Of a stretch of DNA of 64,000 nt, positions 3,389 through 59,188 are shown piece after piece. Below the pieces are notes generated by a model. The model ran no database searches. It was not told the DNA's origin and saw only the letters and a list, made by a program, of their open reading frames with translations. Positions within the stretch are counted from its first letter, which is position 1. Every line of letters begins with the position of its first letter. The stretch comes from a virus. Location: positions 1 through 64,000 of IMG/VR virus record IMGVR_UViG_3300045988_095776, one strand, 5' to 3'. Position numbers and translations under genes: made by a program.

Positions 3389-3586
3389 ATGCTTATGTTA
3401 GAGAACCCTTATGAAGGTTTATGGGAAAAGCATCTGTCAGTTGATGACATGGATGTAATTCTCGAAGCAAAAAGAATGGGAGGAACAGACTATGGCAGGT
3501 TATCCGTATTACCCACAGCCAATTATAAACAATCCATACGGACAAATACAGCCGTATCAGGACAGGCTGGCACAATTGCAGAGTAA
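3389..3586 (+). CDS. hypothetical small protein (overlaps next gene by 95 nt; extent uncertain)
   Basis: strong RBS AAGGAGAAAA before ATG 3389, but overlaps the better-supported ORF 3492. Confidence 0.3.
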   Translation: MLMLENPYEGLWEKHLSVDDMDVILEAKRMGGTDYGRLSVLPTANYKQSIRTNTAVSGQAGTIAE

Positions 3587-3995
3587 CTATCAGCAGACAA
3601 TGCCATATGGACAAATGCAGATGCAACAACCCGTACAGCAAATACCACAAGTCCCAATGATACAAGGACAAATGGTTGATGGTATTGACACTGTAAAGGC
3701 GAAAGATGTGGATATGTCCGGTAATCCTGTTTATTATCCGAAGACAGACGGAACCGAAATCTACAGAAAACAGCTTCAATCCGATGGAAGAAGCAGGATC
3801 TTTGTTTACCGACTTGTAAATTCAGACGAACAGCAACCAAAACAGGAAGGAAAACAGATTGATATTGAAGCAATGTTTAAACAGCTTCATGATGACGTTT
3901 GCTCTGAGATTTCTGGAATAAAAGATTTGCTACCGACACAAATGTCGTTCACAAATGATTCCCCAAGACAGCAGAACGGAGGAAAACAGAGATGA
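3492..3995 (+). CDS. hypothetical Q/P/Y-rich protein
   Basis: RBS GGGAGGA 8 nt upstream; N-terminal 60 aa are Q/P/Y low complexity, globular C-terminal half. Confidence 0.7.
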   Translation: MAGYPYYPQPIINNPYGQIQPYQDRLAQLQSNYQQTMPYGQMQMQQPVQQIPQVPMIQGQMVDGIDTVKAKDVDMSGNPVYYPKTDGTEIYRKQLQSDGRSRIFVYRLVNSDEQQPKQEGKQIDIEAMFKQLHDDVCSEISGIKDLLPTQMSFTNDSPRQQNGGKQR

Positions 3996-4333: not shown

Positions 4334-5146
4334 ATGATGAATGGTTCAAATTACAGTCTTAGTGACATCGCTGCCGCTACAGGCTCTAATAATCGCGCCA
4401 ATGATATGTGGGGCGGTGATGGTTTTTCACTTATCTGGCTCGTACTGATCTTCGCAATCTTCGGATGGGGAGGTTTCGGCGGCTGGGGCGGTGGCTTCGG
4501 TGGTAATGGTGGAAACGGTGCAAATGGCGCAGGATTCCAAGGATGGGCAACCCGTTCAGATATTAGCGAGAGTTTTGCTCTTAATGATATTCAGAACGGT
4601 ATCAGAGGCATTCAGCAGGGTATCTGTGACAGCACATATGCACTCAACAATACCATGCAGAGTGGCTTCAATGGCGTGAACGTTGGAATGCTTCAGGGCT
4701 TCAATGGCGTTCAGCAGGCAATTAACGCTGACACTGTAGCCAACATGCAGAACACAAACGCATTACAGTCTCAGTTAGCAAATTGTTGCTGCGAAACAAG
4801 GGAAGCTATCCAGGGTATCAACTACAACCTGGCAACCAACACTTGTGCTCTTCAGAACACAATGAACAACAATACCAGAGATATTCTGGACAATCAGAAC
4901 AGCAATACCCGTGCCATTCTTGATTATCTTTGCCAGAAAGAGACAGCAGACCTCAGAGCAGAGAATTCTGATCTGAAACGTGCTGCATCCCAGGATCGCC
5001 AGTCTGCACTGCTTACAACTGCTATGGCTTCACAGACTCAGCAGTTAATCAATGCAATTAATCCGGCAGCCATCCCGGCATACGTTGTTCCGAATCCGAA
5101 TACCTACTACGGCGGATGCAATGGATACAACAACGGTTGCTGCTAA
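4334..5146 (+). CDS. hypothetical membrane-anchored Gly/Trp-rich, N/Q-rich, Cys-tailed protein
   Basis: RBS AAGGAGA; TM helix then GWGGFGGWGGGFGGNGGNGANG; internal CCC; ends GGCNGYNNGCC; own terminator. Confidence 0.75.
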   Translation: MMNGSNYSLSDIAAATGSNNRANDMWGGDGFSLIWLVLIFAIFGWGGFGGWGGGFGGNGGNGANGAGFQGWATRSDISESFALNDIQNGIRGIQQGICDSTYALNNTMQSGFNGVNVGMLQGFNGVQQAINADTVANMQNTNALQSQLANCCCETREAIQGINYNLATNTCALQNTMNNNTRDILDNQNSNTRAILDYLCQKETADLRAENSDLKRAASQDRQSALLTTAMASQTQQLINAINPAAIPAYVVPNPNTYYGGCNGYNNGCC

Positions 5147-8666: not shown

Positions 8667-10331
8667 ATGGCAGATTCTATTTTAAAAATACGTACACAAG
8701 ACGGGGATAAACCCATAGGCTATCCGGGACTTGCGGATAAGCCCGTAGCGAACAAAACACTTGATATCGAGGGTGCATTCGCAGATGCTAAAGTAGTAGG
8801 GGACAAATTCAAAGAAGTAAAGGCAGAAACTGATTCGCTAAAGGAAGGTATGGGTGATTTGTCTGTTGGCAACTATATCATCAGCCTAGATTACCATAGT
8901 GGAAAAATCAACCTATCAACTGGGGAAGAAGTTGCACCATATGACACAGCACGGATTTCTGAAAAACTCAATTTTGACAATTATGAAAGTGTAATTGTCG
9001 GAACAACTGCAAGTAAAGACTCAGACTATTGGTTATATATTTCAGTATTTGAATTTGATTCATCTGGGAAATATATCAAACAAATTGCAAATACACTTGA
9101 TAAATATACTATAACTCCAACGAATGGACATTTATATGTTTTGCAATGGTGGTATGGTGGTAATGATTTTAAAAATAGGCTTCCATATACAAAGGTTTCG
9201 GCAAAGTCCTTGCTTAATAAAAAAGATAAAGAAAAAATTTATATAGATTTATCTCCAAAAACAGAAGCAAAACTAGATTTGCCGGATAAATTATTTATCG
9301 TAAAAGGAGAAAGCCTTGAACTGTTTAAATATGGGATGTACTACACTGATACTGAATTTATAAATAATCAGTATAATGTACGTGTTGTAAATATTGACAA
9401 ATATACTACGCAATACGATGATAAAATTGTTATTTCGTGCCCTAAAGATTATTCAAAACCAATTTTACAAGGGGACAATGATTTAGCATTATTCCAATTG
9501 ATTGACACTTACGGTAAAATAATTGAACAAAAGCGTGTAAAAATTTTTGTCGCTGATAAAGCTACTATATCAGATACTGATAGAAATATTATGTATCTTG
9601 GTGATAGCTTTACAGGCTTAGGATTCAGAACACAAGAAATTGCGAATCTTATCTCGCAAGAACCAAAATTATCTAATACAAAATTAATTGGAAAATTTAT
9701 TGGACAGGGTAGCGGAAATAGGTTTACAGGAACAGGCGGTTACAGTTGGGCGAATTATACTGAAAACCCTAATACATTACCTAGTACGTTCCCAAATAAT
9801 TATTTGTGGGATCCAGCCTATAACCAAATCAGTATGCAATACTTAGTAAACTCTTTAGGAGAAAGCCATCTGGAATATGCCGTTATTTTGCTAGGGTGGA
9901 ACGACTACGAAAGTGGAGCGTTTGCACCATCTTTCAGTTGGGATGTTATGAAACAACGTGCCAAAAAAGTAATAGAAAATATTCATAATTATTATCCTAC
10001 TTGTAAAATTATTTTAGAAAGTTATCACTATATGTATCCATTACACAGAAAGTCATATGGCAATGCATTACCACAAGTAAGACAAAACAAATATATTTAT
10101 GAACTAAATAAATTTTATCAAGAAATTGCAAATGAATATGATTATGTTGAATTTGTTCAAATGTCCATTCAGATTGATGTACTTCACAATATGGGATTCG
10201 AAGAAGAAAAAGTAAATAAACGAAGTGAAGAAATTGTCAAATATTGCAAAGATGTTGTTCACCCAGCTGACATTGGTTTTTATCAGTATTCAGACGCAGA
10301 ATTTAATGCACTGTTGTATCTTATGCAGTAA
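8667..10331 (+). CDS. tail fibre / receptor-binding protein with C-terminal SGNH (GDSL) esterase domain
   Basis: N-terminus LDIEGAFADAKVVGDKF is fibre-like; YLGDSFTG, LLGWNDY and DVVHPAD match SGNH blocks I, III and V. Confidence 0.65.
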   Translation: MADSILKIRTQDGDKPIGYPGLADKPVANKTLDIEGAFADAKVVGDKFKEVKAETDSLKEGMGDLSVGNYIISLDYHSGKINLSTGEEVAPYDTARISEKLNFDNYESVIVGTTASKDSDYWLYISVFEFDSSGKYIKQIANTLDKYTITPTNGHLYVLQWWYGGNDFKNRLPYTKVSAKSLLNKKDKEKIYIDLSPKTEAKLDLPDKLFIVKGESLELFKYGMYYTDTEFINNQYNVRVVNIDKYTTQYDDKIVISCPKDYSKPILQGDNDLALFQLIDTYGKIIEQKRVKIFVADKATISDTDRNIMYLGDSFTGLGFRTQEIANLISQEPKLSNTKLIGKFIGQGSGNRFTGTGGYSWANYTENPNTLPSTFPNNYLWDPAYNQISMQYLVNSLGESHLEYAVILLGWNDYESGAFAPSFSWDVMKQRAKKVIENIHNYYPTCKIILESYHYMYPLHRKSYGNALPQVRQNKYIYELNKFYQEIANEYDYVEFVQMSIQIDVLHNMGFEEEKVNKRSEEIVKYCKDVVHPADIGFYQYSDAEFNALLYLMQ

Positions 10332-10555: not shown

Positions 10556-11551
10556 ATGAGAGAAAAATTTTTGAATGGGTTCATGACAAAACTGTATGGA
10601 GAAATTCCGGAAGAGTATCTGGAAACGATCAAAAACAAACTGGCGTTGTATGTAAATGATTTTGATATCAGTCAAAGGGAAACTGCAGTTGTAAAGTATA
10701 CTGGATATTTACCAGATTTCTACAAAACTTACATTGTAAGTAGGAAAATCGAGAGTTTGAGTAAAAAGACACTCGAACTCTACAATCTTTATCTGGATGA
10801 TTTCTTTTTTACAGTCAATAAAAACGCAGAAGACATTACTGCAAATGATATCCGCGTATATCTGTATAACGCTCAGGAGAGCAGAGGATTAAGTAATCGA
10901 ACGCTTGATAGTAGAAGAACTGCCATACACGCTTTCTTTGAGTGGGCTGCAAATGAGGGATATATAGGCAAGAATCCGTGCAGAGTTATCGAAAATATCA
11001 AGTATGAACGTGTAGAGAAGAAACCTCTGACAGATATGGAGTTGGAGAGAATCAGACAGGTATGCGAAACGGTACGCGAAAAAGCACTGGTTGAATTTCT
11101 GTACAGTACCGGAGCCAGGGTTACAGAAGTGTGTGGTGTGAAGAAAACAGATATAGACTTCTACAAAGGTGAAGTGATTGTTTTGGGGAAAGGAAATAAG
11201 CATAGAAAAGTATACCTAAATGCTCGCAGCAAACTTCTTTTAGGACAGTACCTTACATCCAGAGATGATGATTCGGAATATCTTTTTGTAAGTGAAAGAA
11301 AACCACATAATGTATTGAAAAAAGAAGCAATTGAAAGAAACATTCGACTGATAGGTGAACGGGCAGAACTGGATAGACCGTTAACGCCACATCTATTCAG
11401 ACATACCCTTGCGACGCTTATGCTTCAGAGGGGAACTCCTATCACGGAAGTACAGAAGATTTTAGGGCATGTAAATATCAACACGACCATGATTTATGCC
11501 AAGGTGTCAGACGAAGATGTAAAAGCATCTCATATGAAATATGCAATTTAA
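10556..11551 (+). CDS. tyrosine recombinase / integrase (XerC/D-like), full length
   Basis: ARVTE (R), HLFRHT (HxxR), GHVNINTTMIYAKV (H..Y); RBS GGAGGG. Confidence 0.85.
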   Translation: MREKFLNGFMTKLYGEIPEEYLETIKNKLALYVNDFDISQRETAVVKYTGYLPDFYKTYIVSRKIESLSKKTLELYNLYLDDFFFTVNKNAEDITANDIRVYLYNAQESRGLSNRTLDSRRTAIHAFFEWAANEGYIGKNPCRVIENIKYERVEKKPLTDMELERIRQVCETVREKALVEFLYSTGARVTEVCGVKKTDIDFYKGEVIVLGKGNKHRKVYLNARSKLLLGQYLTSRDDDSEYLFVSERKPHNVLKKEAIERNIRLIGERAELDRPLTPHLFRHTLATLMLQRGTPITEVQKILGHVNINTTMIYAKVSDEDVKASHMKYAI

Positions 11552-13445: not shown

Positions 13446-14330
13446 ATGCCAAGACCTACGCCTGACTTTACTGGAATGAAATTCGGAAAATTAACTGCCC
13501 TTTACAGAATTAAATCGGAAAAAACTACAGGTAGTGGAAAACATGCTATGTGGATGTGCAAATGTGATTGTGGGAATGCCAAAATCATAAGTTCCACAAG
13601 GCTTGCACATGGAAAGATAGATAATTGTGGGTGCATGGATTCTAAATGTAGGAATAAAAAAGGACAATTTACAAAGGGTGAAAATGTAAAAGATATTTCT
13701 GGTAAGAAATTTGGAAAATTAACAGTACTGAAATTAGATAAAATTGTTAATAGAAAATCTTATTGGATTGTAAAGTGCGAGTGCGGAACAATAAAAACGG
13801 TAAGAAGTGATACTCTTAAAGTTATTACTTCTTGCGGATGTGACAAGAAAAAACAAGATATTATTAATTTCGACATAACGAATCACCATGAATTGACCCA
13901 CCATCCTGTTTACAGCATATGGAATGCAATGATTAATAGATGTGAAAATCCACATAATAAGAATTACAATAATTATGGTGGACGTGGCATTAAAATTTGC
14001 GAAGAGTGGAAGGATATACGAAATTTTTCAAAATGGGCTGATGAAACCGGATTTGAATTAGGCAAAAACCTTTCTATCGAAAGAAAGGATGTGAACGGTA
14101 ATTATTGCCCCGAAAATTGTTGCTGGATTGACAGAAAATTGCAATCTCGCAATAGAAGAAATACCGTTAGACTTGATATAAACGGAGACAATAAATCACT
14201 TTCAGAATGGTGCGAAGTATACAATGTACCATATAAAAAAGTTATTGGAAGATATTATAGGGGAATACGAGAAATAGATGATTTATTTTATAAAGGCAAT
14301 TTGCAGATGAGAGATTTAGGAAGAGAGTAA
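13446..14330 (+). CDS. free-standing DNA-binding / homing-endonuclease-like protein
   Basis: two FGKLT..-W.CKC.CG...SCGC zinc-ribbon repeats plus YNNYGGRGIKICEEW motif; very AT-rich flanks. Confidence 0.45.
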   Translation: MPRPTPDFTGMKFGKLTALYRIKSEKTTGSGKHAMWMCKCDCGNAKIISSTRLAHGKIDNCGCMDSKCRNKKGQFTKGENVKDISGKKFGKLTVLKLDKIVNRKSYWIVKCECGTIKTVRSDTLKVITSCGCDKKKQDIINFDITNHHELTHHPVYSIWNAMINRCENPHNKNYNNYGGRGIKICEEWKDIRNFSKWADETGFELGKNLSIERKDVNGNYCPENCCWIDRKLQSRNRRNTVRLDINGDNKSLSEWCEVYNVPYKKVIGRYYRGIREIDDLFYKGNLQMRDLGRE

Positions 14331-16768: not shown

Positions 16769-18325
16769 ATGGCCGATAATACCATAGATACCCTCAATAT
16801 ACAAATAGGCAGTAGCACAACTCAGGCGGTACGGTCTATTAATAACCTTGTGAAAAAATTAGATACATTAAACACTGCCCTTGGAAATCTTGACATAAGT
16901 CGGTTAAATAATTTTTCCAATTCTTTAAAAAGTTTAGGTAGCGTGAATTTTAAAGCAAATGGATTGAATGCGGCTATAAACGCCATCAATCGTCTTGGTA
17001 AATCTGATTTTAGCCAGTTTGATACAGGAAAATTAGGTGAAATTCTTACTGAGATGCAGAAACTTGATTCTATTCCAGATGTTTCTCCGAGCGTTAGCCG
17101 GTTCACGACCGCTATAGCTAAACTTGCCGGTACAGGACAGTATATCGGCAATGTATCAAAGGAACTTCCGAATCTTGCGACAGGTTTAAATAATGCGTCT
17201 ACTAAATTAGGCTCTATGAGCGAAGTATCAGCATCCACCAATGCTTTTATTACTTCTCTTGGAAAATTAGCTAGTGCAGGAGATAAAACTGGAAAGACTG
17301 CAAATCAATTATCAACTCTCGCGCAAGAGGTTTTGAAGTTTTTTGACGTAATGAAAAGCGCACCAGATATCAGTTCGAGCACAATAAGAATGACAGAGGC
17401 ATTGGCTGTACTTGCTTCGTCTGGAAGTAAAGTCGGAAGAGCTACAAGCAGTGTTTCAAGCTCACTCAATAATTTGTCGTCTGTTGGCTCTAAAGTCAGT
17501 TCCGTAATGCATGGTGTTGCTAATGCGTTCCAGGCTTTTGCTTCAAAAACAATATCTCTTGGGGCAAAAGTAGTATCAGCCATAGCCGGAATAGGCAATG
17601 CTTCGTCCGAAACAGGTGAAAAAATAAGAAAACTGTCAAATCCGTTAAGCTCATTGACAAATAAGTTGAGTGCTTTATATGCAAAAGGATTTTTAGTAAA
17701 ACGGGCCCTTGAAGTTTTATCATCGCCTGTAGAATCTGCGATGAATTACGTAGAGACTTTGAATTATTTCAACTCTGCATTTAATCAAGTTGCAGAAGGA
17801 ATCGACACAGACGAATGGAAGAAGAGCGGTATTAAATCCGCAGAAGCATATGCCAATTCATTTCAAGAGAGAGCAAAACAACTTTCTCAGAAATTGACAG
17901 GATTTGAAATTTCCGATACTGGGGAACTTACTAGAACAAATACTGCAAGCCTTGGACTTGACCCTGAAAAGGCCATGCAGTATCAGGCAACATTCGCACA
18001 GATGTCATCATCTATGGGCGATACCTCCGAGACTGCATTGAAGTTGTCAAATGCTTTGACAATGATTGGTTCTGACCTTGCATCTGTAAGGAACATGGAT
18101 TTTGAAGATGTATGGGAAGACATGGCATCCGGATTGACTGGCATGAGCCGTACAATGGACAAGTATGGCATCAATATCCGTAATGCCAATATGCAACAGG
18201 AATTATACAATCTGGGAATCAACACCAGCATATCAAATTTATCTCAGGCAGATAAAACGATCTTACGTACAATTATTTTGCTGAATAATTCTAAATATGC
18301 ATGGGGTGATTTGGCTAATACGATT
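16769..18325 (+). CDS. tape measure protein, exon 1 (519 codons)
   Basis: RBS AAAGGAGG; S/A/L-rich helical repeats; standard-code ORF runs into the insert and stops at 18341. Confidence 0.7.
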
Positions 18326-18654
18326 AACCAGTCAGCGGCGTGATAAATGCATAGCTGTTGATTTAGTCGCCTATATCGAAACCGACAAGTAGGATATGGG
18401 TTATAAGTGATGAAATAAGCTGGAAAGCCGTTTGCAACGGTAATCAGAGAGTGAAGGCTATGGGCAAAAACATAGTCAACCGCAACGCGTAGGAAGTGAA
18501 CCTGTCGCTGAGATGCTACAGAATATAATCTTCCCAAGAGGCATCACTATCGGTCGGTACGGGTGCAGAACCCGTGGTAAAAAGGTACGCTGGACTGCAT
18601 TATAATGATGCAGAAGTAAGGATAAAAAGCCTTACGATAACAATTCGAAATCAG
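18326..18654 (+). ncRNA. candidate self-splicing group I intron interrupting the tape-measure gene (boundaries approximate)
   Basis: exon 1 ends in U 18325, insert ends in G 18654; removal joins ...DLANTI to PANQIRMLQSNF in frame; P1-like pairing 18322-18328/18357-18363 with a U-G wobble; several hairpins. Confidence 0.5.
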
Positions 18655-21600
18655 CCAGCAAACCAGATTCGTATGCTGCAATCCAATTTTGCATCTCTTG
18701 GTAGAACAATAGGCTCCTTGTTCATTCCTATACTGCGAACAGTTCTTCCGTATATCAATGCAATAGTCATTGCACTTCAAAGAATGTTTGCTTATATTGC
18801 AAAATTGCTTGGAATCAAACTGTCAAACTTTGTATCATCTACTGGCGGTATTTCTGTAGATACAAGTAACATTGCGGATGATATGGATAATGCCAGTGAT
18901 TCTATTGATACTGCAAATAAGAATGCAAAAAAACTCGAAAAAACATTGTCAGTTCTTTCATTTGATGAACTGAATCAGCTTAATGACAATTCTGATTCTG
19001 GTAGTACAAGTAATCCTTCTTCCGGTTCTGGAAATGGTGGATTAGGACATATAGGAGCGCTTGATGCTGCATTAGATGATGCTTTGTCTGCATATCAAAA
19101 AGCATGGGATGAAGCTTTTAAAAAGATGTCCAACAGGGCAAATAAAATGGCAGATGCCATTGTAAATGCCTTTAAGAGAAAAGACTGGAAAGGTCTTGGA
19201 AAAATCATGGCTGATGGCATCAACTGGGGTATGCAAAAACTCTATGATGCTATTAACTGGAACAAAGTAGGCCCTTACATCACTAAATTCACCAGTGCAT
19301 TCACCCAGACTTTCAACAGCCTTGTTGATAATATCAACTGGAATTTGATGGGACGCACTGTTGGCGCTGGATTAAATACTATTGTCAATATGGCAAATCA
19401 GCTTCTGGAAGGAACAGACTTCAAAAACCTTGGAAAGAAATTTGCTGAAGGCGTCACAGGATTTATTCGCGAAGTTGAATGGACTAATTTTGGCAACATG
19501 CTTGGAAACAATTTCATGAAAGCATGGGATGTGTTTACAGGATTTGTAGAAAATCTTCCGTATAACGAAATCGGTCAGGCCGTTGCGAATGGTTTAAATG
19601 GTATTTTTGAAAAAGTAGATTTTGGTGAAATCGCACATGCGCTTGCAACCGGTTTGAATGGTGCATTTGATTCACTAGCGGCATTTACCAGTAACTTCAA
19701 TTGGAATGATTTTGTTGATAACATCACAAGTGGCATCGTGACATTTATGCAGGAATTTGACTGGAAAGAAAACGGGCAGAAACTTGAAAACTTTATCAAT
19801 CATCTCTTGACGTCATTGATTGACATTGCAAAAGGCGTCGATTGGGAATCATTCGGACATAATGTAGGGGTTTTTCTGAGCCAGATAGAATGGGGCAAAC
19901 ATCTTTCTCGGCTTTTGACGGTTGTTGGTGATGTGCTTGGTGGAATTTGGGAAGGGCTTGGAACAACATCTGCCGGCACGTTTGTACAGGCAATGGCTGT
20001 TTTTGCTATTGGTGATAAATTAATGCCACTTGTGGATACTATCACCAAATTCTTTACAGGCGATACAGTTTTTGGAAATCTTTCTACAGCTGTGCAAAGT
20101 ATGCTGAATCCCGCAATCACTGAGGCGGTAAAGACAACTATTCCAGCACTTGGAACTTCTTTAGGAAGCCTTGTTGCAACAGGCGGTGGAATTGCTCTTG
20201 CTGTAGGCGGAGCAGTATTACTTACCAAGAAATTAGCAGGACTTTTTGAGACCATGCAAGGCGGCAATGGAATGACTACGCAATATGGCGGCTATCTGCA
20301 TGATTACGCAACACAGTTGACTGATGTGGCAAATCTTACAAACGATCAATCAGAAGCATTATGGCAGTTGATTGAAAAGGACGAAGAGCTTGGAAAGACC
20401 CACGATGAAATGTATTCTGATATGGTTGAAAAGCTAAAAGAATATGGTGTTTCAGCAGATCAGGCAAAAACAGCTCTTGAAAATTATGGTGCTCAGGCGG
20501 GTGTTTCGGCAGATTTTGTTGAGGGTATGACTAATAAAATATCGGCACTTGGAGACGGCATGTCAGAAGCAGCATCCAAATTCGACACTTCGAAAATCAG
20601 CATTTCTGATTTGAAAGATGAGTTGTATATGCTGAGCTTGAAATCTGATGAATTTGGCGGTTCGTATAAAACTGCTATGGACGAACTTGACAATGCTAAC
20701 AATGGTGGAGCAATAACCAATACTAAAGATGCTCTGGATAAAGTTTACACATCACTCAAAAATGCAGGTGTTCCACTTGATGAACTTGATAAGAAATTAC
20801 GAGAAGATTTTCCAAATGCAACTGTTGTAACCAAAACGGCTGTTGAGCAGAATATAGTCGGGGCTCAGGAAACTATTTCGTCATCCGTTGCAAAAGCATC
20901 AAAAGATACCAAAACAGCTACAAGCGAAATGACAAAAAATGCAACTGACGACTTTGCAGAAATTCAAAAGCAAGCTGATACTTATATGGGAAATGTCGCT
21001 ACCACAACGTCTATGAATTGGGGAAATTCTTCACGAGAAGCAACCATAAAGGCCAGAGAGATGAAAGTAGCGGTCAGCACAGAACTTGGTAATATGGACA
21101 AATCTGTCAGAAGCCATTTCGAAAGCCAATATAACATCGCTTATGTGAAATGGGAAAATATTGGAAGAGACATATCCAATTATATTTCCGGTACGATGAA
21201 TAGTGATATAGGCAGTGCACTGGATAGCTTTGTTGATACAATCCGAAATTCTTTCAGTAATATGTATGATATTGGATACAATGCAGCACAAAGTCTTTAT
21301 AGCGGCATGAAAAATGTTTCTATGCCAACATTATCATATCGTATATCAGAATGGAAAACACATAATCTTGGAAACGGTAAAACCAGTCAAACTCCTGTTT
21401 ACAGTCCTAATTGGTACGCAACAGGTGGAGTATTTACAAAGGCGTCTGTAATCGGCGTTGGCGAAGCAGGACAGGAAGCTGTTCTCCCACTGACAAACCG
21501 TAAGGTAATGAAAAGTATTGCTGATAATATCATGTCTAGCTATGACGGTAGTGCAGGTCTTTCAAAGGAAGAACTTGCAGCAGCTGTTGAACGCGGCGTG

Positions 21601-21753
21601 GTTACTGCGATGATGAACAACGGTGGATTTGGTGGATCTTCGCCAGAGTACATCATGAACAGCATCAAGGTCAACGAACGTGAGCTGGCACGAATTGTCA
21701 CAAAAGCACAAAGCAATACAGAATATCGTATGAATCCATCACCGGCATATTGA
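18655..21753 (+). CDS. tape measure protein, exon 2 (1032 aa)
   Basis: continues the TMP-type sequence; the track ORF 18574 start is a GTG inside the insert with no RBS. Confidence 0.7.
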   Translation, partial: PANQIRMLQSNFASLGRTIGSLFIPILRTVLPYINAIVIALQRMFAYIAKLLGIKLSNFVSSTGGISVDTSNIADDMDNASDSIDTANKNAKKLEKTLSVLSFDELNQLNDNSDSGSTSNPSSGSGNGGLGHIGALDAALDDALSAYQKAWDEAFKKMSNRANKMADAIVNAFKRKDWKGLGKIMADGINWGMQKLYDAINWNKVGPYITKFTSAFTQTFNSLVDNINWNLMGRTVGAGLNTIVNMANQLLEGTDFKNLGKKFAEGVTGFIREVEWTNFGNMLGNNFMKAWDVFTGFVENLPYNEIGQAVANGLNGIFEKVDFGEIAHALATGLNGAFDSLAAFTSNFNWNDFVDNITSGIVTFMQEFDWKENGQKLENFINHLLTSLIDIAKGVDWESFGHNVGVFLSQIEWGKHLSRLLTVVGDVLGGIWEGLGTTSAGTFVQAMAVFAIGDKLMPLVDTITKFFTGDTVFGNLSTAVQSMLNPAITEAVKTTIPALGTSLGSLVATGGGIALAVGGAVLLTKKLAGLFETMQGGNGMTTQYGGYLHDYATQLTDVANLTNDQSEALWQLIEKDEELGKTHDEMYSDMVEKLKEYGVSADQAKTALENYGAQAGVSADFVEGMTNKISALGDGMSEAASKFDTSKISISDLKDELYMLSLKSDEFGGSYKTAMDELDNANNGGAITNTKDALDKVYTSLKNAGVPLDELDKKLREDFPNATVVTKTAVEQNIVGAQETISSSVAKASKDTKTATSEMTKNATDDFAEIQKQADTYMGNVATTTSMNWGNSSREATIKAREMKVAVSTELGNMDKSVRSHFESQYNIAYVKWENIGRDISNYISGTMNSDIGSALDSFVDTIRNSFSNMYDIGYNAAQSLYSGMKNVSMPTLSYRISEWKTHNLGNGKTSQTPVYSPNWYATGGVFTKASVIGVGEAGQEAVLPLTNRKVMKSIADNIMSSYDGSAGLSKEELAAAVERGVVTAMMNNGGFGGSSPEYIMNSIKVNERELARIVTKAQSNTEYRMNPSPAY

Positions 21754-28410: not shown

Positions 28411-29187
28411 TTGAGAACGTACAAGTGCAACCTTGACGACTTCTTCCAGACGGTCAACAAACCGCTGAATCAGATAACCACCAACGATATCCGTGTGTAC
28501 CTGTTCGGGCTGTCGGCAAAAGGCAACACTAACCGGACGATTGACGGAAAGCGCCTTATCATTCACACGTTTCTGGACTGGTGCGTCAAGGAAGAGTATC
28601 TGACTAAAAATGTTTGTAGCCGAATAAATCCAATCAAGTTTAAAGCCAAACCACGTGAGCCGTTGTCTGATATCGAATTGGAATTAGTTCGCGATGCTTG
28701 CAAGGATTATCGAGAAAAAGCCCTTGTTGAACTGTTCTACAGTACCGGATGCCGTGTTTCGGAAATGGTGATTCTGAAGAAAGCTGACATTGACTTTCGG
28801 ACGAAAGAAGTTCATCTGTTCGGAAAAGGCAGTAAACACCGGATATCGTACATCAACGCCAGAGCCGAAGTTGCTCTGAAGAAATACTGGCTCAGTCGGA
28901 AAGGTGATTCTGACAGCGTGATATCCACCGGACGTCAGCCGTATCGGGGCATCACAAAGACACAAATCGAACAAATAGTCCGGCAGATTGGAGAGCGTTC
29001 CGGCATCGGTAGACACTTATATCCACATCTGATAAGGCACACAACGGCAAGCATGGCGTTTGAGCGGGGAATGAACGTCACCGACTTGCAGAAGATGCTC
29101 GGACACGAGAAACTTGACACGACTATGATTTACGCAAAAGTAGCACAGGAATCTGTACGCTACAGTCACCACAAGTATGTTTCATGA
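28411..29187 (+). pseudogene. 5'-truncated tyrosine recombinase (catalytic domain only, TTG start)
   Basis: aligns to aa ~75-331 of integrase 10556-11551; retains CRVSE, HLIRHT and GHEKLDTTMIYAKV; no upstream N-terminal coding sequence (stop at 28378). Confidence 0.6.
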
Positions 29188-38243: not shown

Positions 38244-40271
38244 ATGAAGAAAATCGAAGTAAGAGAAATTAGATTGACCGATTTTAAAGGCCAGTCAGAA
38301 AAGAAAATAGAGTTCGGACACAGAACAGTCGTTTCCGGTAAGAACGGATGCGGAAAAACCACACTGGCAGACGCTTTTATGTGGGTGTTCTGTGACAAGG
38401 ACTACAGCTTAAAAAGTAACCCGGATATCAGACCGGATGATGGTAGAGAATGTCTCCCAAGAGTTGACATTGACCTTTTGATTGACGGAAAACCAGTAAG
38501 CGTTTCTAAGTACCAGAAACGCACAGAAAGCAAGCCAAAGGACGGAAAACCGGGCAAGGTTGCATTATCCAACAAGTACGAAATCAACGGCGTTCCGAAA
38601 GCTGAAAGAGATTTTAAAGCCGATTTGAAAGAACGCGGATTTGATTTTGATAATTTCCTGAGGCTGTCTCACATGGAAATCTTCACAGACTTGAAAGATG
38701 CAGATGCCAGAAAGATTCTGTTTTCCATGTCAGACGGTGCCGGGAAATCAGATTTAGAGATTGCCAAGACAGTTCCAGATTGTGCCGAGTTAGTACCACT
38801 TCTGGAAACCTACAAAGCAGACGAAATTAAGGCCATGAACAGTGCAACACTGAAAAAGGCAGAGGAACAGTTGAAAGCCATTCCAAACCAGATTATCGGT
38901 ATGGAGCAGGCGAAAGTCGATGCTGATACCGCCGAATTGGAATTGCAGAAGAATGCCTTGCAGGAACAGATTTCAGACCTCGAAAAGCAGATTGCGCAGG
39001 CAGGGAACGAGAAAGCTGGAGAGATTAAAGCGGAACTGGCAGGGTTAAGAACCAAACTGTTAGAGACGGAATCAAAGGCTAAAGCGAACTTGTTAGAGCA
39101 GAAATCATCGGTTTGCAATAAAGTTAGCAGTTTTGAATTAGACAGGAATATCAAAACATCAGAGTTGAACAGAAAGACTTCTACATTGGAAAGCCTGAGA
39201 GCGCAGAAAAAAGATCTTCTTGAAAAATTACAGAACGCCAGAACACAGTATCCCAAAATCAAAGACACAGAATGGGACAACACAGTTCTGGAAAGCATTA
39301 AATCCGAGGCATTCAAGGACGCAGATACCATTTGCCCGACTTGTGGTCATAGTCTTCCACCAGAGCAGATTGAGCAGTTAAAGAGCAGATTTGAACAGAA
39401 GAAGCAGGAAAGAATCAATCAGCAGTTAAAAGCCAAGGAAGAATGGGAACAGGACAAGAAACGCAAACTTGATGAAGTTATTCAGGTTGGAAACAAAGCG
39501 TCTGCCGATATGAAAGAAGCGCATAAGCAAGAAGAAACCCTCACATCTGAGATTTCCAAACTGACAGATGAATTAGAGCAGATCAAAACTTCTCTGGATG
39601 CAGAAAACAAAAATTTGGAATCCATACCGAAAGAGCCAGATTTCTCAGAAAACGCCGAATATCAGCAAATTCTTGTATCAATCAAAGAGAAAGAGCAGGA
39701 ACTTAATTCTCTGGACGATGGCGAAGAAGCAAAGAAACAGCTTTCAGAGCAGTTATCCGGCAAGAAACAGGAATTGGAAGCAGTTAATCAGAAAATCGGA
39801 GAAGCCAACAACAACGTCCGAATTGACGAGCAGATTGCGGAACTGGAAGCCAGCAGGACGGAATATTCTCAGAAGAAAGCTGATGCACAGATGATTCTGG
39901 ATGAACTGAAATCACTGAGTATGGCAAAAAATACAGCCCTTGAAGATACGGTGAACCAGTATTTTGACGGTGTTAAGGTGAAACTGTTCGATACGCAGAA
40001 AAACGGCGAAGTCGTAGATGCTTGCATCTGGTACGTGCAGGACAAGGATGGTAACTGGAAGAAATTAATCGGGAATGCCAATACAGCCCTGATGATGAAA
40101 GGCAAAATTGCCATCATGTACGGCTTACAGAAGTTTTACGGCGTGAGTTATCCAATATTCGTAGACTGCGCAGCAGAACTGGATAACATCAGTCTGGCAG
40201 GAATTAAGGCAGATGCGCAGTTAATTTTCTTGAAAGTTGCTGAATGGGATATGAAGGTAGCGGAGATTTGA
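38244..40271 (+). CDS. AAA/SMC-like ATPase with long coiled coil (SbcC/RecF-like)
   Basis: Walker A GKNGCGKTT; central coiled coil with CPTCGH zinc hook-like motif. Confidence 0.65.
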   Translation: MKKIEVREIRLTDFKGQSEKKIEFGHRTVVSGKNGCGKTTLADAFMWVFCDKDYSLKSNPDIRPDDGRECLPRVDIDLLIDGKPVSVSKYQKRTESKPKDGKPGKVALSNKYEINGVPKAERDFKADLKERGFDFDNFLRLSHMEIFTDLKDADARKILFSMSDGAGKSDLEIAKTVPDCAELVPLLETYKADEIKAMNSATLKKAEEQLKAIPNQIIGMEQAKVDADTAELELQKNALQEQISDLEKQIAQAGNEKAGEIKAELAGLRTKLLETESKAKANLLEQKSSVCNKVSSFELDRNIKTSELNRKTSTLESLRAQKKDLLEKLQNARTQYPKIKDTEWDNTVLESIKSEAFKDADTICPTCGHSLPPEQIEQLKSRFEQKKQERINQQLKAKEEWEQDKKRKLDEVIQVGNKASADMKEAHKQEETLTSEISKLTDELEQIKTSLDAENKNLESIPKEPDFSENAEYQQILVSIKEKEQELNSLDDGEEAKKQLSEQLSGKKQELEAVNQKIGEANNNVRIDEQIAELEASRTEYSQKKADAQMILDELKSLSMAKNTALEDTVNQYFDGVKVKLFDTQKNGEVVDACIWYVQDKDGNWKKLIGNANTALMMKGKIAIMYGLQKFYGVSYPIFVDCAAELDNISLAGIKADAQLIFLKVAEWDMKVAEI

Positions 40272-57517: not shown

Positions 57518-59188
57518 ATGAACATATATTATGCAAGGGAAAGATTAAGGACAGGATCTATTTTTGACCTAAAGTTAAAAGTGGCATATTACGCAAGAGT
57601 TAGCACGGAAAAAGTGGAGCAGCAGGTATCTATCAAGCACCAGCAAGAATATTACGAGGAATTTATTCGTTCAAATCAGAATTGGACTTTTTCGGGAGCA
57701 TATATTGACGATGGAATATCTGGAATCCATGCCGAAAAGAGAGAGGAATTTCAGAATATGATTCGAGATGCAAAGCTCGGAAGAGTAGATATGATCATCA
57801 CGAAAGAGATTTCCAGATTTGCCAGAAACACGCTTGACAGCATTCAATATACCAGAGAACTACTGTCCTATGGAGTTTGTGTATGGTTTCAAAACGACGG
57901 GATTAATACCATTGACGAGGACAGCGAATTACGTTTGACAATTATGGCAGGCGTTGCGCAAGATGAACTTCGAAAACTTTCGAGCCGTATCAAATTCGGA
58001 CATGCAAGGTCAATTCAGAACGGAGTTGTGCTTGGAAATCGAATATACGGATATCACAAGAAAGACGGGAAACTCACTATAGTTCCTGAAGAAGCTGAAA
58101 TGATTAGGATGATATTCAGAGATTACGCATCGGGAACCATGTCTACCCCTAAATTAGAAAAGAAATTATGGGACATGGGGTACAGGAACTTCAAGGGTGG
58201 AAAAATAAACAGAGATGTTATCAGGAATATTATCAAAAACCCCAAATATAAAGGATATTTTTGCGGTGGAAAAGTGAAGATTGTCGATATGTTTACCAAA
58301 AAGCAAGAATTCCTGCCAGAATCCAAATGGGTAATATTTAAGGATGACGGGAGCCGGGTACCTCAAATCATAGACGAAGAAACATGGGAAAAGGCGAATG
58401 AGTATATGAAGAAGAGAAGTGAAGCTATAAAATCTCATCGAACTTCGTTTAAAAACGGAAATCTCTTCACGGGTAAAATTTTTTGCGCTAATGATGGCGC
58501 TCCGTACTGGATGAAGCAGCATTATGTACGCGGAAAAGAAGATGTGAGATGGGTATGCAGTTACAAAATCAAAAATGGAGCGGATTCTTGCAGTTCACAC
58601 GGTATCAGAGAGTCTGATTTAAAGAAAGTGGTCGCAAGCCTTATCAACGAATCTTCATGTAATATAGATGAAGTTATCAAGGAATACTTAAATATAATAA
58701 GAAAAGTTATTAATAATAAGCCGGATACGGGCATTGAAAAAGAAAGGCTTCAAAACCAGATTGATGCAATAAAAAAGAAGAAAGAAAAAATACTGGAATA
58801 TAACCTTAATGGAAATATTCCGGACGAAGAGTTTATATCAAGGAATAAGGACTACACAAAACAAATCATTGATTTGGAGATGGAAATTTCGAAATTAGTC
58901 CCGGAAGATGTCGAACTACAAATAACAGAAAAACAACTTTCGAAAATCACAGAGGAACTAAAAAGTTTTAAAGAAGTAAAAGAAGAAGATATAAATCGCC
59001 AAATTATTGATAAGCTTTTTGACAAAATAGTTGTGTCGTTGTCGGCGGATAAACAAACCGTGTGCAAATTCTATTTAAGCACTGGATGCTTGAAAATACG
59101 GGATTTGGGTGGGGTTGTTCTGAATACATGTTATTTAACAATACGTAAGAACGACACAAGGCATTTTATAGGCGAACTTGTAGCTTAA
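57518..59188 (+). CDS. large serine recombinase (phage integrase type)
   Basis: 556 aa; YARVST catalytic Ser region, recombinase domain, Cys-rich zinc-ribbon region, C-terminal coiled coil. Confidence 0.85.
   Translation: MNIYYARERLRTGSIFDLKLKVAYYARVSTEKVEQQVSIKHQQEYYEEFIRSNQNWTFSGAYIDDGISGIHAEKREEFQNMIRDAKLGRVDMIITKEISRFARNTLDSIQYTRELLSYGVCVWFQNDGINTIDEDSELRLTIMAGVAQDELRKLSSRIKFGHARSIQNGVVLGNRIYGYHKKDGKLTIVPEEAEMIRMIFRDYASGTMSTPKLEKKLWDMGYRNFKGGKINRDVIRNIIKNPKYKGYFCGGKVKIVDMFTKKQEFLPESKWVIFKDDGSRVPQIIDEETWEKANEYMKKRSEAIKSHRTSFKNGNLFTGKIFCANDGAPYWMKQHYVRGKEDVRWVCSYKIKNGADSCSSHGIRESDLKKVVASLINESSCNIDEVIKEYLNIIRKVINNKPDTGIEKERLQNQIDAIKKKKEKILEYNLNGNIPDEEFISRNKDYTKQIIDLEMEISKLVPEDVELQITEKQLSKITEELKSFKEVKEEDINRQIIDKLFDKIVVSLSADKQTVCKFYLSTGCLKIRDLGGVVLNTCYLTIRKNDTRHFIGELVA

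Follow-up and report, generated by a model that had tools for sequence, protein, structure and literature searches.

A probable IA-like group I intron in the tape-measure gene of a human-gut phage

The tape-measure protein (TMP) gene of a phage or prophage from human gut metagenomes is interrupted by an insert that, judging from its sequence and with a probability of about 0.9, is a group I intron of the phage-type IA class. The insert occupies positions 18325-18647 of the window (the whole stretch of 64,000 nucleotides that was analysed), so that exon 1 would end at U18324, the last base of the intron would be G18647 and exon 2 would begin at A18648. All features described here lie on the plus strand of the window unless stated otherwise. 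The element is 323 nt long and without an ORF, and it is matched by two family covariance models described below (R1, 122 bits for the 3′ half; R2, 56 bits for P4-P6). A sequence-only reading of the same DNA had proposed that a group I intron interrupts the TMP gene, and this central claim is borne out by a P1-P10 architecture, by covariation in more than 100 relatives, by similarity to the td and nrdB introns of phage T4 and by the existence of intron-less alleles.

The break in the frame is real. Specifically, the TMP ORF (16769-18343) is closed by a TGA at 18341-18343 and TMP-homologous coding restarts downstream in a different frame, as had been noted earlier and as both the ORF calls and homology now confirm. 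The insert between the two TMP exons has stops in all three frames, in agreement with the earlier remark that it holds no ORF; its G+C content is 0.44 (0.39-0.40 in the flanks) and the region folds better than 100 of 100 shuffles (z = -3.5). Exon 1 (16769-18324) ends in ...ACG AU, U18324 being the 5′ splice-site U, and exon 2 (18648-21753) starts with AAAUCAG (18648-18654), both junctions being taken from the alleles on contigs L004, L005 and L121 (see below). Removal of 18325-18647 would give the ligated sequence ACG AU/A AAU CAG CCA (here and below, a slash within a sequence marks the splice point) and a single TMP of 1553 aa containing ...DLANTINQPANQIRML, the predicted junction reading ...ACGAU/AAAUCAGCC; the length of about 1551 aa given previously is corrected accordingly. 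The PHROG tape-measure profile phrog_1535 aligns continuously over the spliced junction, and the open frame of exon 2 comprises 1035 codons. In terms of annotation, the ORFs 16769-18343 and 18574-21753 should be merged as one 1553-aa TMP gene with an intron at 18325-18647.

The neighbourhood of the intron contains a major head gene, an HNH endonuclease gene, a major tail gene, chaperones, the TMP gene, a collagen-repeat fibre gene and an endolysin gene; looking up the exact endolysin sequence gave no match. The HNH endonuclease gene is free-standing (13446-14330, plus strand; phrog_374, E = 2e-78) and precedes the tail genes, with 4 kb between it and the ORF-less intron; a weak HNH gene is also found upstream on contig L005. 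Two tyrosine-recombinase (phage integrase family) genes (10556-11551 and 28411-29187, both on the plus strand) flank the tail module within the late region, and a large serine recombinase gene is located at 57518-59188; inversion systems or nested mobile elements are possible explanations for this unusual placement of recombinases. The non-structural part of the window includes a gene for a 675-aa AAA_15/AAA_13-type ATPase (38244-40271, plus strand), which could be a defence or exclusion gene.

The position of the insert is given by comparison with other alleles of the same gene. Searching with the spliced junction region retrieved homologues that cross the junction unbroken, and in all nine aligned TMP homologues ...NTI and PANQ... 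are separated by two residues, which are mostly NQ. The closest of them (P0001, encoded on contig L004; 89% amino acid identity) is intron-less, with a junction that reads ACG ATC AAT CAA CCG GCA (T I N Q P A; peptide NTINQPANQIRM) and an insertion site of ACGAUCAAUCAACCGGC; deletion of 18325-18647 from the window reproduces this intron-less junction sequence (TINQPANQ) exactly. An intron-bearing sister allele (L005, 87% nucleotide identity) has the 5′ end ...ACGAU/AAACAGG... and the 3′ end ...GAUAACAAAUCG/AAAUCAACCGG. A third allele (L121) carries a very different insert of 1253 nt at the identical TMP site, and its similarity to the other alleles restarts at AAAUCAACCGG after ...AAAGUG; the first 7 intron bases of L121 (AGACGAU) do not encode NQ, whereas the 7 bases past its terminal G do. 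Taken together, L004, L005 and L121 fix the intron at 18325-18647. Intron-less TMP alleles, which had been named among the things worth looking for, are therefore represented by L004 as well as by relatives in bacterial genomes, where a scan for TMP relatives returned three loci (a MAG, Caproiciproducens and a Gastranaerophilales MAG), all of them intron-less. The terminal G is also a family trait, in that nearly all of the 128 family tails listed have a G 3-5 nt 3′ of GAUAACAA; the search pattern behind this comparison itself fixes GAUAACAA, and the downstream G is not part of it.

At the 5′ end, a P1 stem-loop (18321-18369) pairs 18321-18327 with 18363-18369, all pairs being standard and a U18324-G18366 wobble falling at the splice site, and is continued by a P1 extension (18331-18339 with 18354-18362) that shows compensatory changes both in L005 and in L069, a relative in another gene. 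The guide sequence (18358-18369) also serves the other end of the intron, since the first seven bases of exon 2 (18648-18654) pair with 18358-18364 to form a P10 of 7 bp. The pairing of CGAU with GUCG, including the U-G wobble, is retained in L005 and L121. As a whole, L005 is left with a P1 of 4 bp and a P10 of about 3 bp, which is a point against the intron model. In two relatives from other phages the guide matches the exon of its own locus (GUUGGU with GUUAAC in L001, GACGCU with GGCGUC in L002), with a U-G wobble as the final pair in both cases. The intron and exon 2 open with similar heptamers (UAACCAG and AAAUCAG, respectively), a likeness that is to be expected because both pair with one guide sequence. 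The in-frame TGA (18341-18343) is reached 17 nt into the intron and falls in the P1-extension loop, so ribosomes on unspliced RNA would halt ahead of the catalytic core (P3 onwards); early stop codons of this kind are a normal feature of phage group I introns.

Beyond P1, the remainder of a full P1-P10 architecture can be drawn for 18325-18647, in which P3 and P7 cross to form the pseudoknot typical of group I introns. The group I core (P3-P8), on which the original proposal had been made to depend, could thus be modelled, with covariation supporting P3-P9.1, and the four hairpins that had been picked out by eye are real, corresponding to P5 (18427-18441), the inner part of P8 (18559-18575), P9 (18595-18613) and P9.1 (18616-18635). 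The P2 hairpin (18370-18400; 18370-18377 with 18393-18400) differs in 6 of 8 pairs in L069 and in 3 pairs in L005, all of which are still paired. The 5′ strand of P3 (GUGAUG, 18407-18412) pairs with its 3′ strand (CAUCAC, 18542-18547), as recovered in a structure-blind alignment. P4 (18420-18423 with 18444-18447) encloses P5 (18427-18431 with 18437-18441) across A-rich J4/5 and J5/4 segments (18420-18447 overall), the two helices being 95% and 77% paired, respectively, in the 52 sequences of R2, and the P6 hairpin (18456-18477; 18456-18462 with 18471-18477) is 89% paired with covariation at 7 of 7 pairs.

The 5′ strand of P7 (18485-18491) consists of A18485, a bulged C18486 and G18487-A18491; its counterpart in the alignment to T4 is P7 of td and nrdB, and it pairs with the 3′ strand UACGCU (18586-18591), which is placed by RNAalifold and by the family alignment. 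In the family alignment P7 is 97.5% paired and its R-Y pair switches between AU (64) and GC (34), and the AACGC...GCUG of P7 is invariant in 23 sequences. More specifically, the candidate guanosine-binding pair G18487-C18590 adjoins the bulged C18486 and is, by sequence pattern, G-C in 101 of 106 relatives. P7.1 (18492-18496 with 18530-18534) encloses the P7.2 hairpin (18502-18508 with 18515-18521; 18492-18534 overall) and is 98% paired, with covariation at 5 of 5 pairs, and P7.2 shows compensatory changes in L005 and L069. In the Michel-Westhof classification, extra P7.1/P7.2 pairings between P7 and the 3′ strand of P3 mark subgroup IA, and P7.1 with a nested P7.2 occupies just this position here. 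The 3′ portion of the intron is completed by P8 (18548-18579; 18548-18551 with 18576-18579 and, inside, 18559-18564 with 18570-18575), which is 90% paired, covaries at 5 of 5 pairs and is found de novo by RNAalifold; by J8/7 (18580-18585); by the P9 hairpin (18595-18601 with 18607-18613), which is 95% paired with 5 of 5 pairs covarying and aligns to P9 of T4 td and nrdB; by the P9.1 hairpin (18616-18621 with 18630-18635; 99% paired, 6 of 6 covarying), which has the conserved loop AUAAAAAG; and by a 3′ tail GAUAACAAUUCG (18636-18647) leading to the terminal G18647, right past which the sequence held in common with L121 begins.

Covariation was assessed both without and with a structural model. 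In a structure-blind MAFFT alignment of 17 members, 96% of P3 cells are paired and all six pairs are changed on both sides, while P7 and P7.1 are 100% paired; on 23 members, RNAalifold recovered P7, P7.1, P8, P9 and P9.1 de novo. The same program predicted nothing on a MAFFT alignment of P3-P6, because two subgroups had been aligned out of register, and this result was superseded by realignment with R2, which solved the problem. The family was described by two half-length covariance models, R1 for the 3′ half and R2 for P4-P5-P6. R1 finds 116 copies in 100 sources, in which 96.1% of cells are paired and both sides have changed in 24 of 26 pairs; this degree of 3′-half covariation was reached by none of 500 shuffles, and slid controls gave 30-55%. 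R2 finds 52 copies, which abut or overlap the R1 match of the same locus wherever coordinates were compared, and 88.5% of their P4-P6 cells are paired. Pairwise comparison gives a similar picture: there are 34 intron differences between the window and L005, every changed helix pair outside P1 staying paired, and the same holds for 35 of the 36 pairs outside P1 that differ from L069. The window intron moreover recurs without change in 5 further metagenome contigs, which come from several samples, and with one mismatch in a sixth; the identical copies together with the pair-keeping changes relative to L005 point to selection on this intron lineage. Within the 64-kb window, R1 has one copy only, namely the TMP intron.

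The established Rfam model for this class, RF00028, gave no match at the intron, either in the whole window at the gathering threshold or in 18200-18800 at E values up to 10, and none at the family element in the 36 distinct loci scanned. Its single match among related loci is a second intron at another position in L054, which scores above the threshold of RF00028 itself and is also matched by R1. Since RF00028 was silent, the link was tested in reverse by running the family model R1 against T4 (18 kb, both strands, no filters): the td core (8998-9135) came first (E = 1.3e-4) and the nrdB core (14090-14268) second (E = 3e-3), these E-values being only moderate and coming from a briefly calibrated model. 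In both matches P7, J8/7 and P9 line up in register, and the T4 record used lists each of the two introns as group IA. The covariance search that had been suggested as a check on the proposal consequently has a divided outcome, with no match from RF00028 and the two T4 introns as the top matches of R1. Two other candidates were set aside. RAGATH-33 (15 bits, E = 1.8) covers P9, P9.1 and the tail (18589-18675), and was treated as chance because it runs 28 nt into exon 2 and is absent in 20 family loci. Group II introns have domains I-VI, with a catalytic hairpin in domain V, and are usually longer than 600 nt, while the present element measures only 323 nt and has no Rfam group II match. According to a recent paper, RF00028 does not cover phage introns completely and IA2 is a heterogeneous subgroup (PMC11878797); the present case indicates that an entire lineage of phage group I introns, and a common one, can escape the model, and hence that Rfam-based surveys of phage introns undercount.

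Modelled on the established group I pathway, splicing would begin with the pairing of 18363-18369 of the guide to the last bases of exon 1 and the opening bases of the intron (P1), which would place the U18324-G18366 wobble at an active site built by P3-P9, where the P3/P7 pseudoknot and G18487-C18590 beside the bulged C18486 would form the guanosine pocket. An external guanosine would then attack after U18324, the exon-2 bases 18648-18654 would dock on 18358-18364 (P10) as the terminal G18647 enters the pocket, and exon ligation would yield one 1553-aa tape-measure protein. From these features we infer that the window copy splices, in vivo or in vitro.

An improbable reading, though the best surviving of the alternatives, is that the insert, a true group I intron by origin, has lost splicing in the copy found here, leaving TMP broken and the prophage either defective or reliant on a truncated product of 524 aa. 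Such a copy would be in keeping with the lack of an endonuclease gene and with the stop in frame 17 nt into the intron, and the extra recombinase genes in the late region might suggest a decaying element. However, every core helix has been preserved and P7 has its invariant AACGC...GCUG, exon 2 keeps its frame open for 1035 codons, the intron is identical in 5 other contigs, and the sister lineage, at 87% identity, keeps the structure by means of compensatory changes. The suggestion, made earlier as the alternative to an intron, that the TMP is truly split or inactivated finds no support.

Less probable still is the intron as it was originally delimited, at 18326-18654 with a P1 formed by 18322-18328 and 18357-18363. 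In this version the intron is preceded by a U and ends in a G, and a pairing of 7 bp can be drawn, and deleting 18326-18654 does restore the frame as had been claimed; the boundaries themselves do not hold, since the product reads NTI/PANQ instead of the NTINQPANQ of L004 and the nine homologues, losing the NQ present in all of them. In L005, the base before the splice point so defined is A, not U, and the intron would end in A; in L121, exon homology begins at AAAUCA directly past ...AAAGUG; and the G that nearly all of the 128 family tails listed have 3-5 nt past GAUAACAA corresponds to G18647, G18654 falling within exon 2. Both splice sites had therefore been misplaced, the 5′ site by 1 nt and the 3′ site by 7 nt, and the likeness between UAACCAG and AAAUCAG is what misled the first reading on the boundaries. 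The P1 that went with them is not conserved, and 18358-18364 have two other partners instead, namely the first part of the intron (in the P1 extension) and the first bases of exon 2 (in P10). Two further junctions were considered and rejected: 18331/18332...18654/18655 also gives TINQPANQ, but a G would precede the splice site, the L005 intron would end in A and L121 would give TIDD; U18332...G18658 is in frame, but one residue short.

Relatives of the intron are widespread. Parts of the insert have matches in other phages, in gaps that carry no annotation, at least 120 IMG/VR contigs contain the motif GATAAAAAGC-N(3-10)-GATAACAA, and at least 116 related introns are found in IMG/VR phage contigs, with host genes that include helicase, terminase-like and other TMP genes. 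For instance, in Bacillus phage vB_BauM_KLEB27-3 (L001, OM634661) an unannotated relative of 672 nt (1902-2573) splits the DnaB helicase gene into gp069 and gp070; predicted splicing (GGU/...AAAUCG/AAAUCA) regains the Walker A motif GQSNVGKS and leaves a single DnaB_C domain running across the junction, and exon 2 starts with AAAUCAG, the same 7 nt as exon 2 in the window. In the cultured Clostridium phage CB452P1 (L002, OP172752) an unannotated relative (1748-2683) splits the TMP gene at a different site, with the junction ...TEAMVDA/GVGEFERLKEFG; the two halves of the gene are annotated as two ‘hypothetical’ CDS, and a 212-aa ORF within the intron (CDS 1851-2489) has no Pfam match. The split helicase and TMP genes in these two deposited records need the same annotation correction as the window. 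A human faecal phage contig (L003, MT835481) has a relative in a terminase-like gene, with no U-G wobble P1 that could be modelled at the presumed 5′ splice site. Three family-model matches lie within 2 kb of this terminase-like gene (2556-2713, 3579-3714 and 4525-4606), which suggests several introns in one gene. In another locus (L067, 9188-9245, reverse strand) the 3′ strands of P5 and P4 are apparently missing and P3, P6 and the 3′ half are kept, and this may be a degenerate core or a misassembly.

That the insert is not an intron at all, being instead another structured insertion (a miniature mobile element or an RNA gene) or reflecting a TMP made as two proteins or by recoding, deserves hardly any credence: the missing Rfam group I match, with the chance-level RAGATH-33 (E = 1.8) as the sole Rfam hint, is set against an insert without terminal inverted repeats or target-site duplication, an exon 2 without a start codon or ribosome-binding context where homology begins, a 7-nt likeness of UAACCAG to AAAUCAG that is predicted by P1 and P10 sharing one guide, and an architecture, covariation, matches to T4 introns and in-frame restoration of motifs in three host genes that fit an intron.

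For the group I intron, mobility is suggested by the relatives that sit in frame in other genes and by the L121 allele. The 1253-nt intron of L121 (plus-strand 856-2108, the coding strand being the reverse) carries a 315-codon homing-endonuclease gene of the GIY-YIG + NUMOD1 type, placed after the 5′ strand of P4, in the P5 region; in the 323 nt of the window intron there is no homing-endonuclease gene and no ORF. One TMP site is thus seen in three states, i.e. empty, with an ORF-less copy and with a copy that has a GIY-YIG gene, and the window copy most likely descends from, or moves with the help of, endonuclease-bearing relatives such as L121. If true, this would make the site a natural series for following the cycle in which structural genes of gut phages gain and lose introns and homing endonucleases. 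On a wider scale, it is an even bet that the family constitutes a large and coherent phage IA-like lineage (P9.1 loop GAUAAAAAGC, tail GAUAACAA-N(3-5)-G, at least 116 members in IMG/VR) that Rfam misses and that, for this reason, is probably unannotated in most phage genomes, as in KLEB27-3 and CB452P1.

Among known systems, the td and nrdB introns of T4 (group IA; hosts of I-TevI and I-TevIII) share with the window intron the extra P7.1/P7.2 and a P9.1 followed by a short G-ended tail. The likeness to td includes an R-like element (UAACGACUA in td, CAACGCGUA in the window intron) and an S-like element (AUAUAGUCUG and AGGUACGCUG, respectively), and relatives of the window intron carry GIY-YIG genes like the I-TevI of T4. 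There are also clear differences: similarity is low (17-23 bits), the window copy has no ORF, P7.1 and the P7.2 inside it form a single extended arm, the window family has its own specific loop GAUAAAAAGC and tail GAUAACAA, and the host gene is structural and does not belong to nucleotide metabolism. RF00028 (Intron_gpI) and the window intron represent the same RNA class, yet RF00028 finds only the intron at the other position in L054. The introns of orf142 in phage Twort are small, of the IA2 type and without ORFs, and come from a phage of Firmicutes; the sequence GUAACAUAAUUG, which we take to be the 3′ tail of the Twort ribozyme, resembles the tail GAUAACAAUUCG of the window intron. In Staphylococcus phage Twort, orf142 is the tail tube protein gene (PMC11878797), and introns in other phage tail and capsid genes are known as well (PMC3706429; PMC11878797).

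The closest precedent in terms of the host gene was described by Tourasse and Kolsto in 2008, who found IA1/IA2 introns at three TMP sites in prophages of the Bacillus cereus group, including 11 of 11 B. anthracis isolates, and named them TMP-IVS1, IVS2, IVS3a and IVS3b (PMC2504315). The sequence-only reading had considered an intron in a tape-measure gene to be unusual, which this earlier description contradicts. Several of the B. cereus introns are without a complete homing-endonuclease gene, different introns share one site and similar introns occur at different sites (PMC2504315). They agree with the window intron in the kind of host gene, in the IA class and in being located in conserved gene stretches, and the patterns of site sharing are those seen with the window, L121 and L002; compared by published description, the window differs in that its host is a human-gut phage, with the nearest intron-less TMP relatives in Clostridia-type genomes. 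As TMP-gene introns are already documented (PMC2504315), the window intron is not new in kind and the understanding of TMP group I introns is unchanged by it; rather, it adds a gut-phage example to the known settling of group I introns in conserved stretches of TMP genes.
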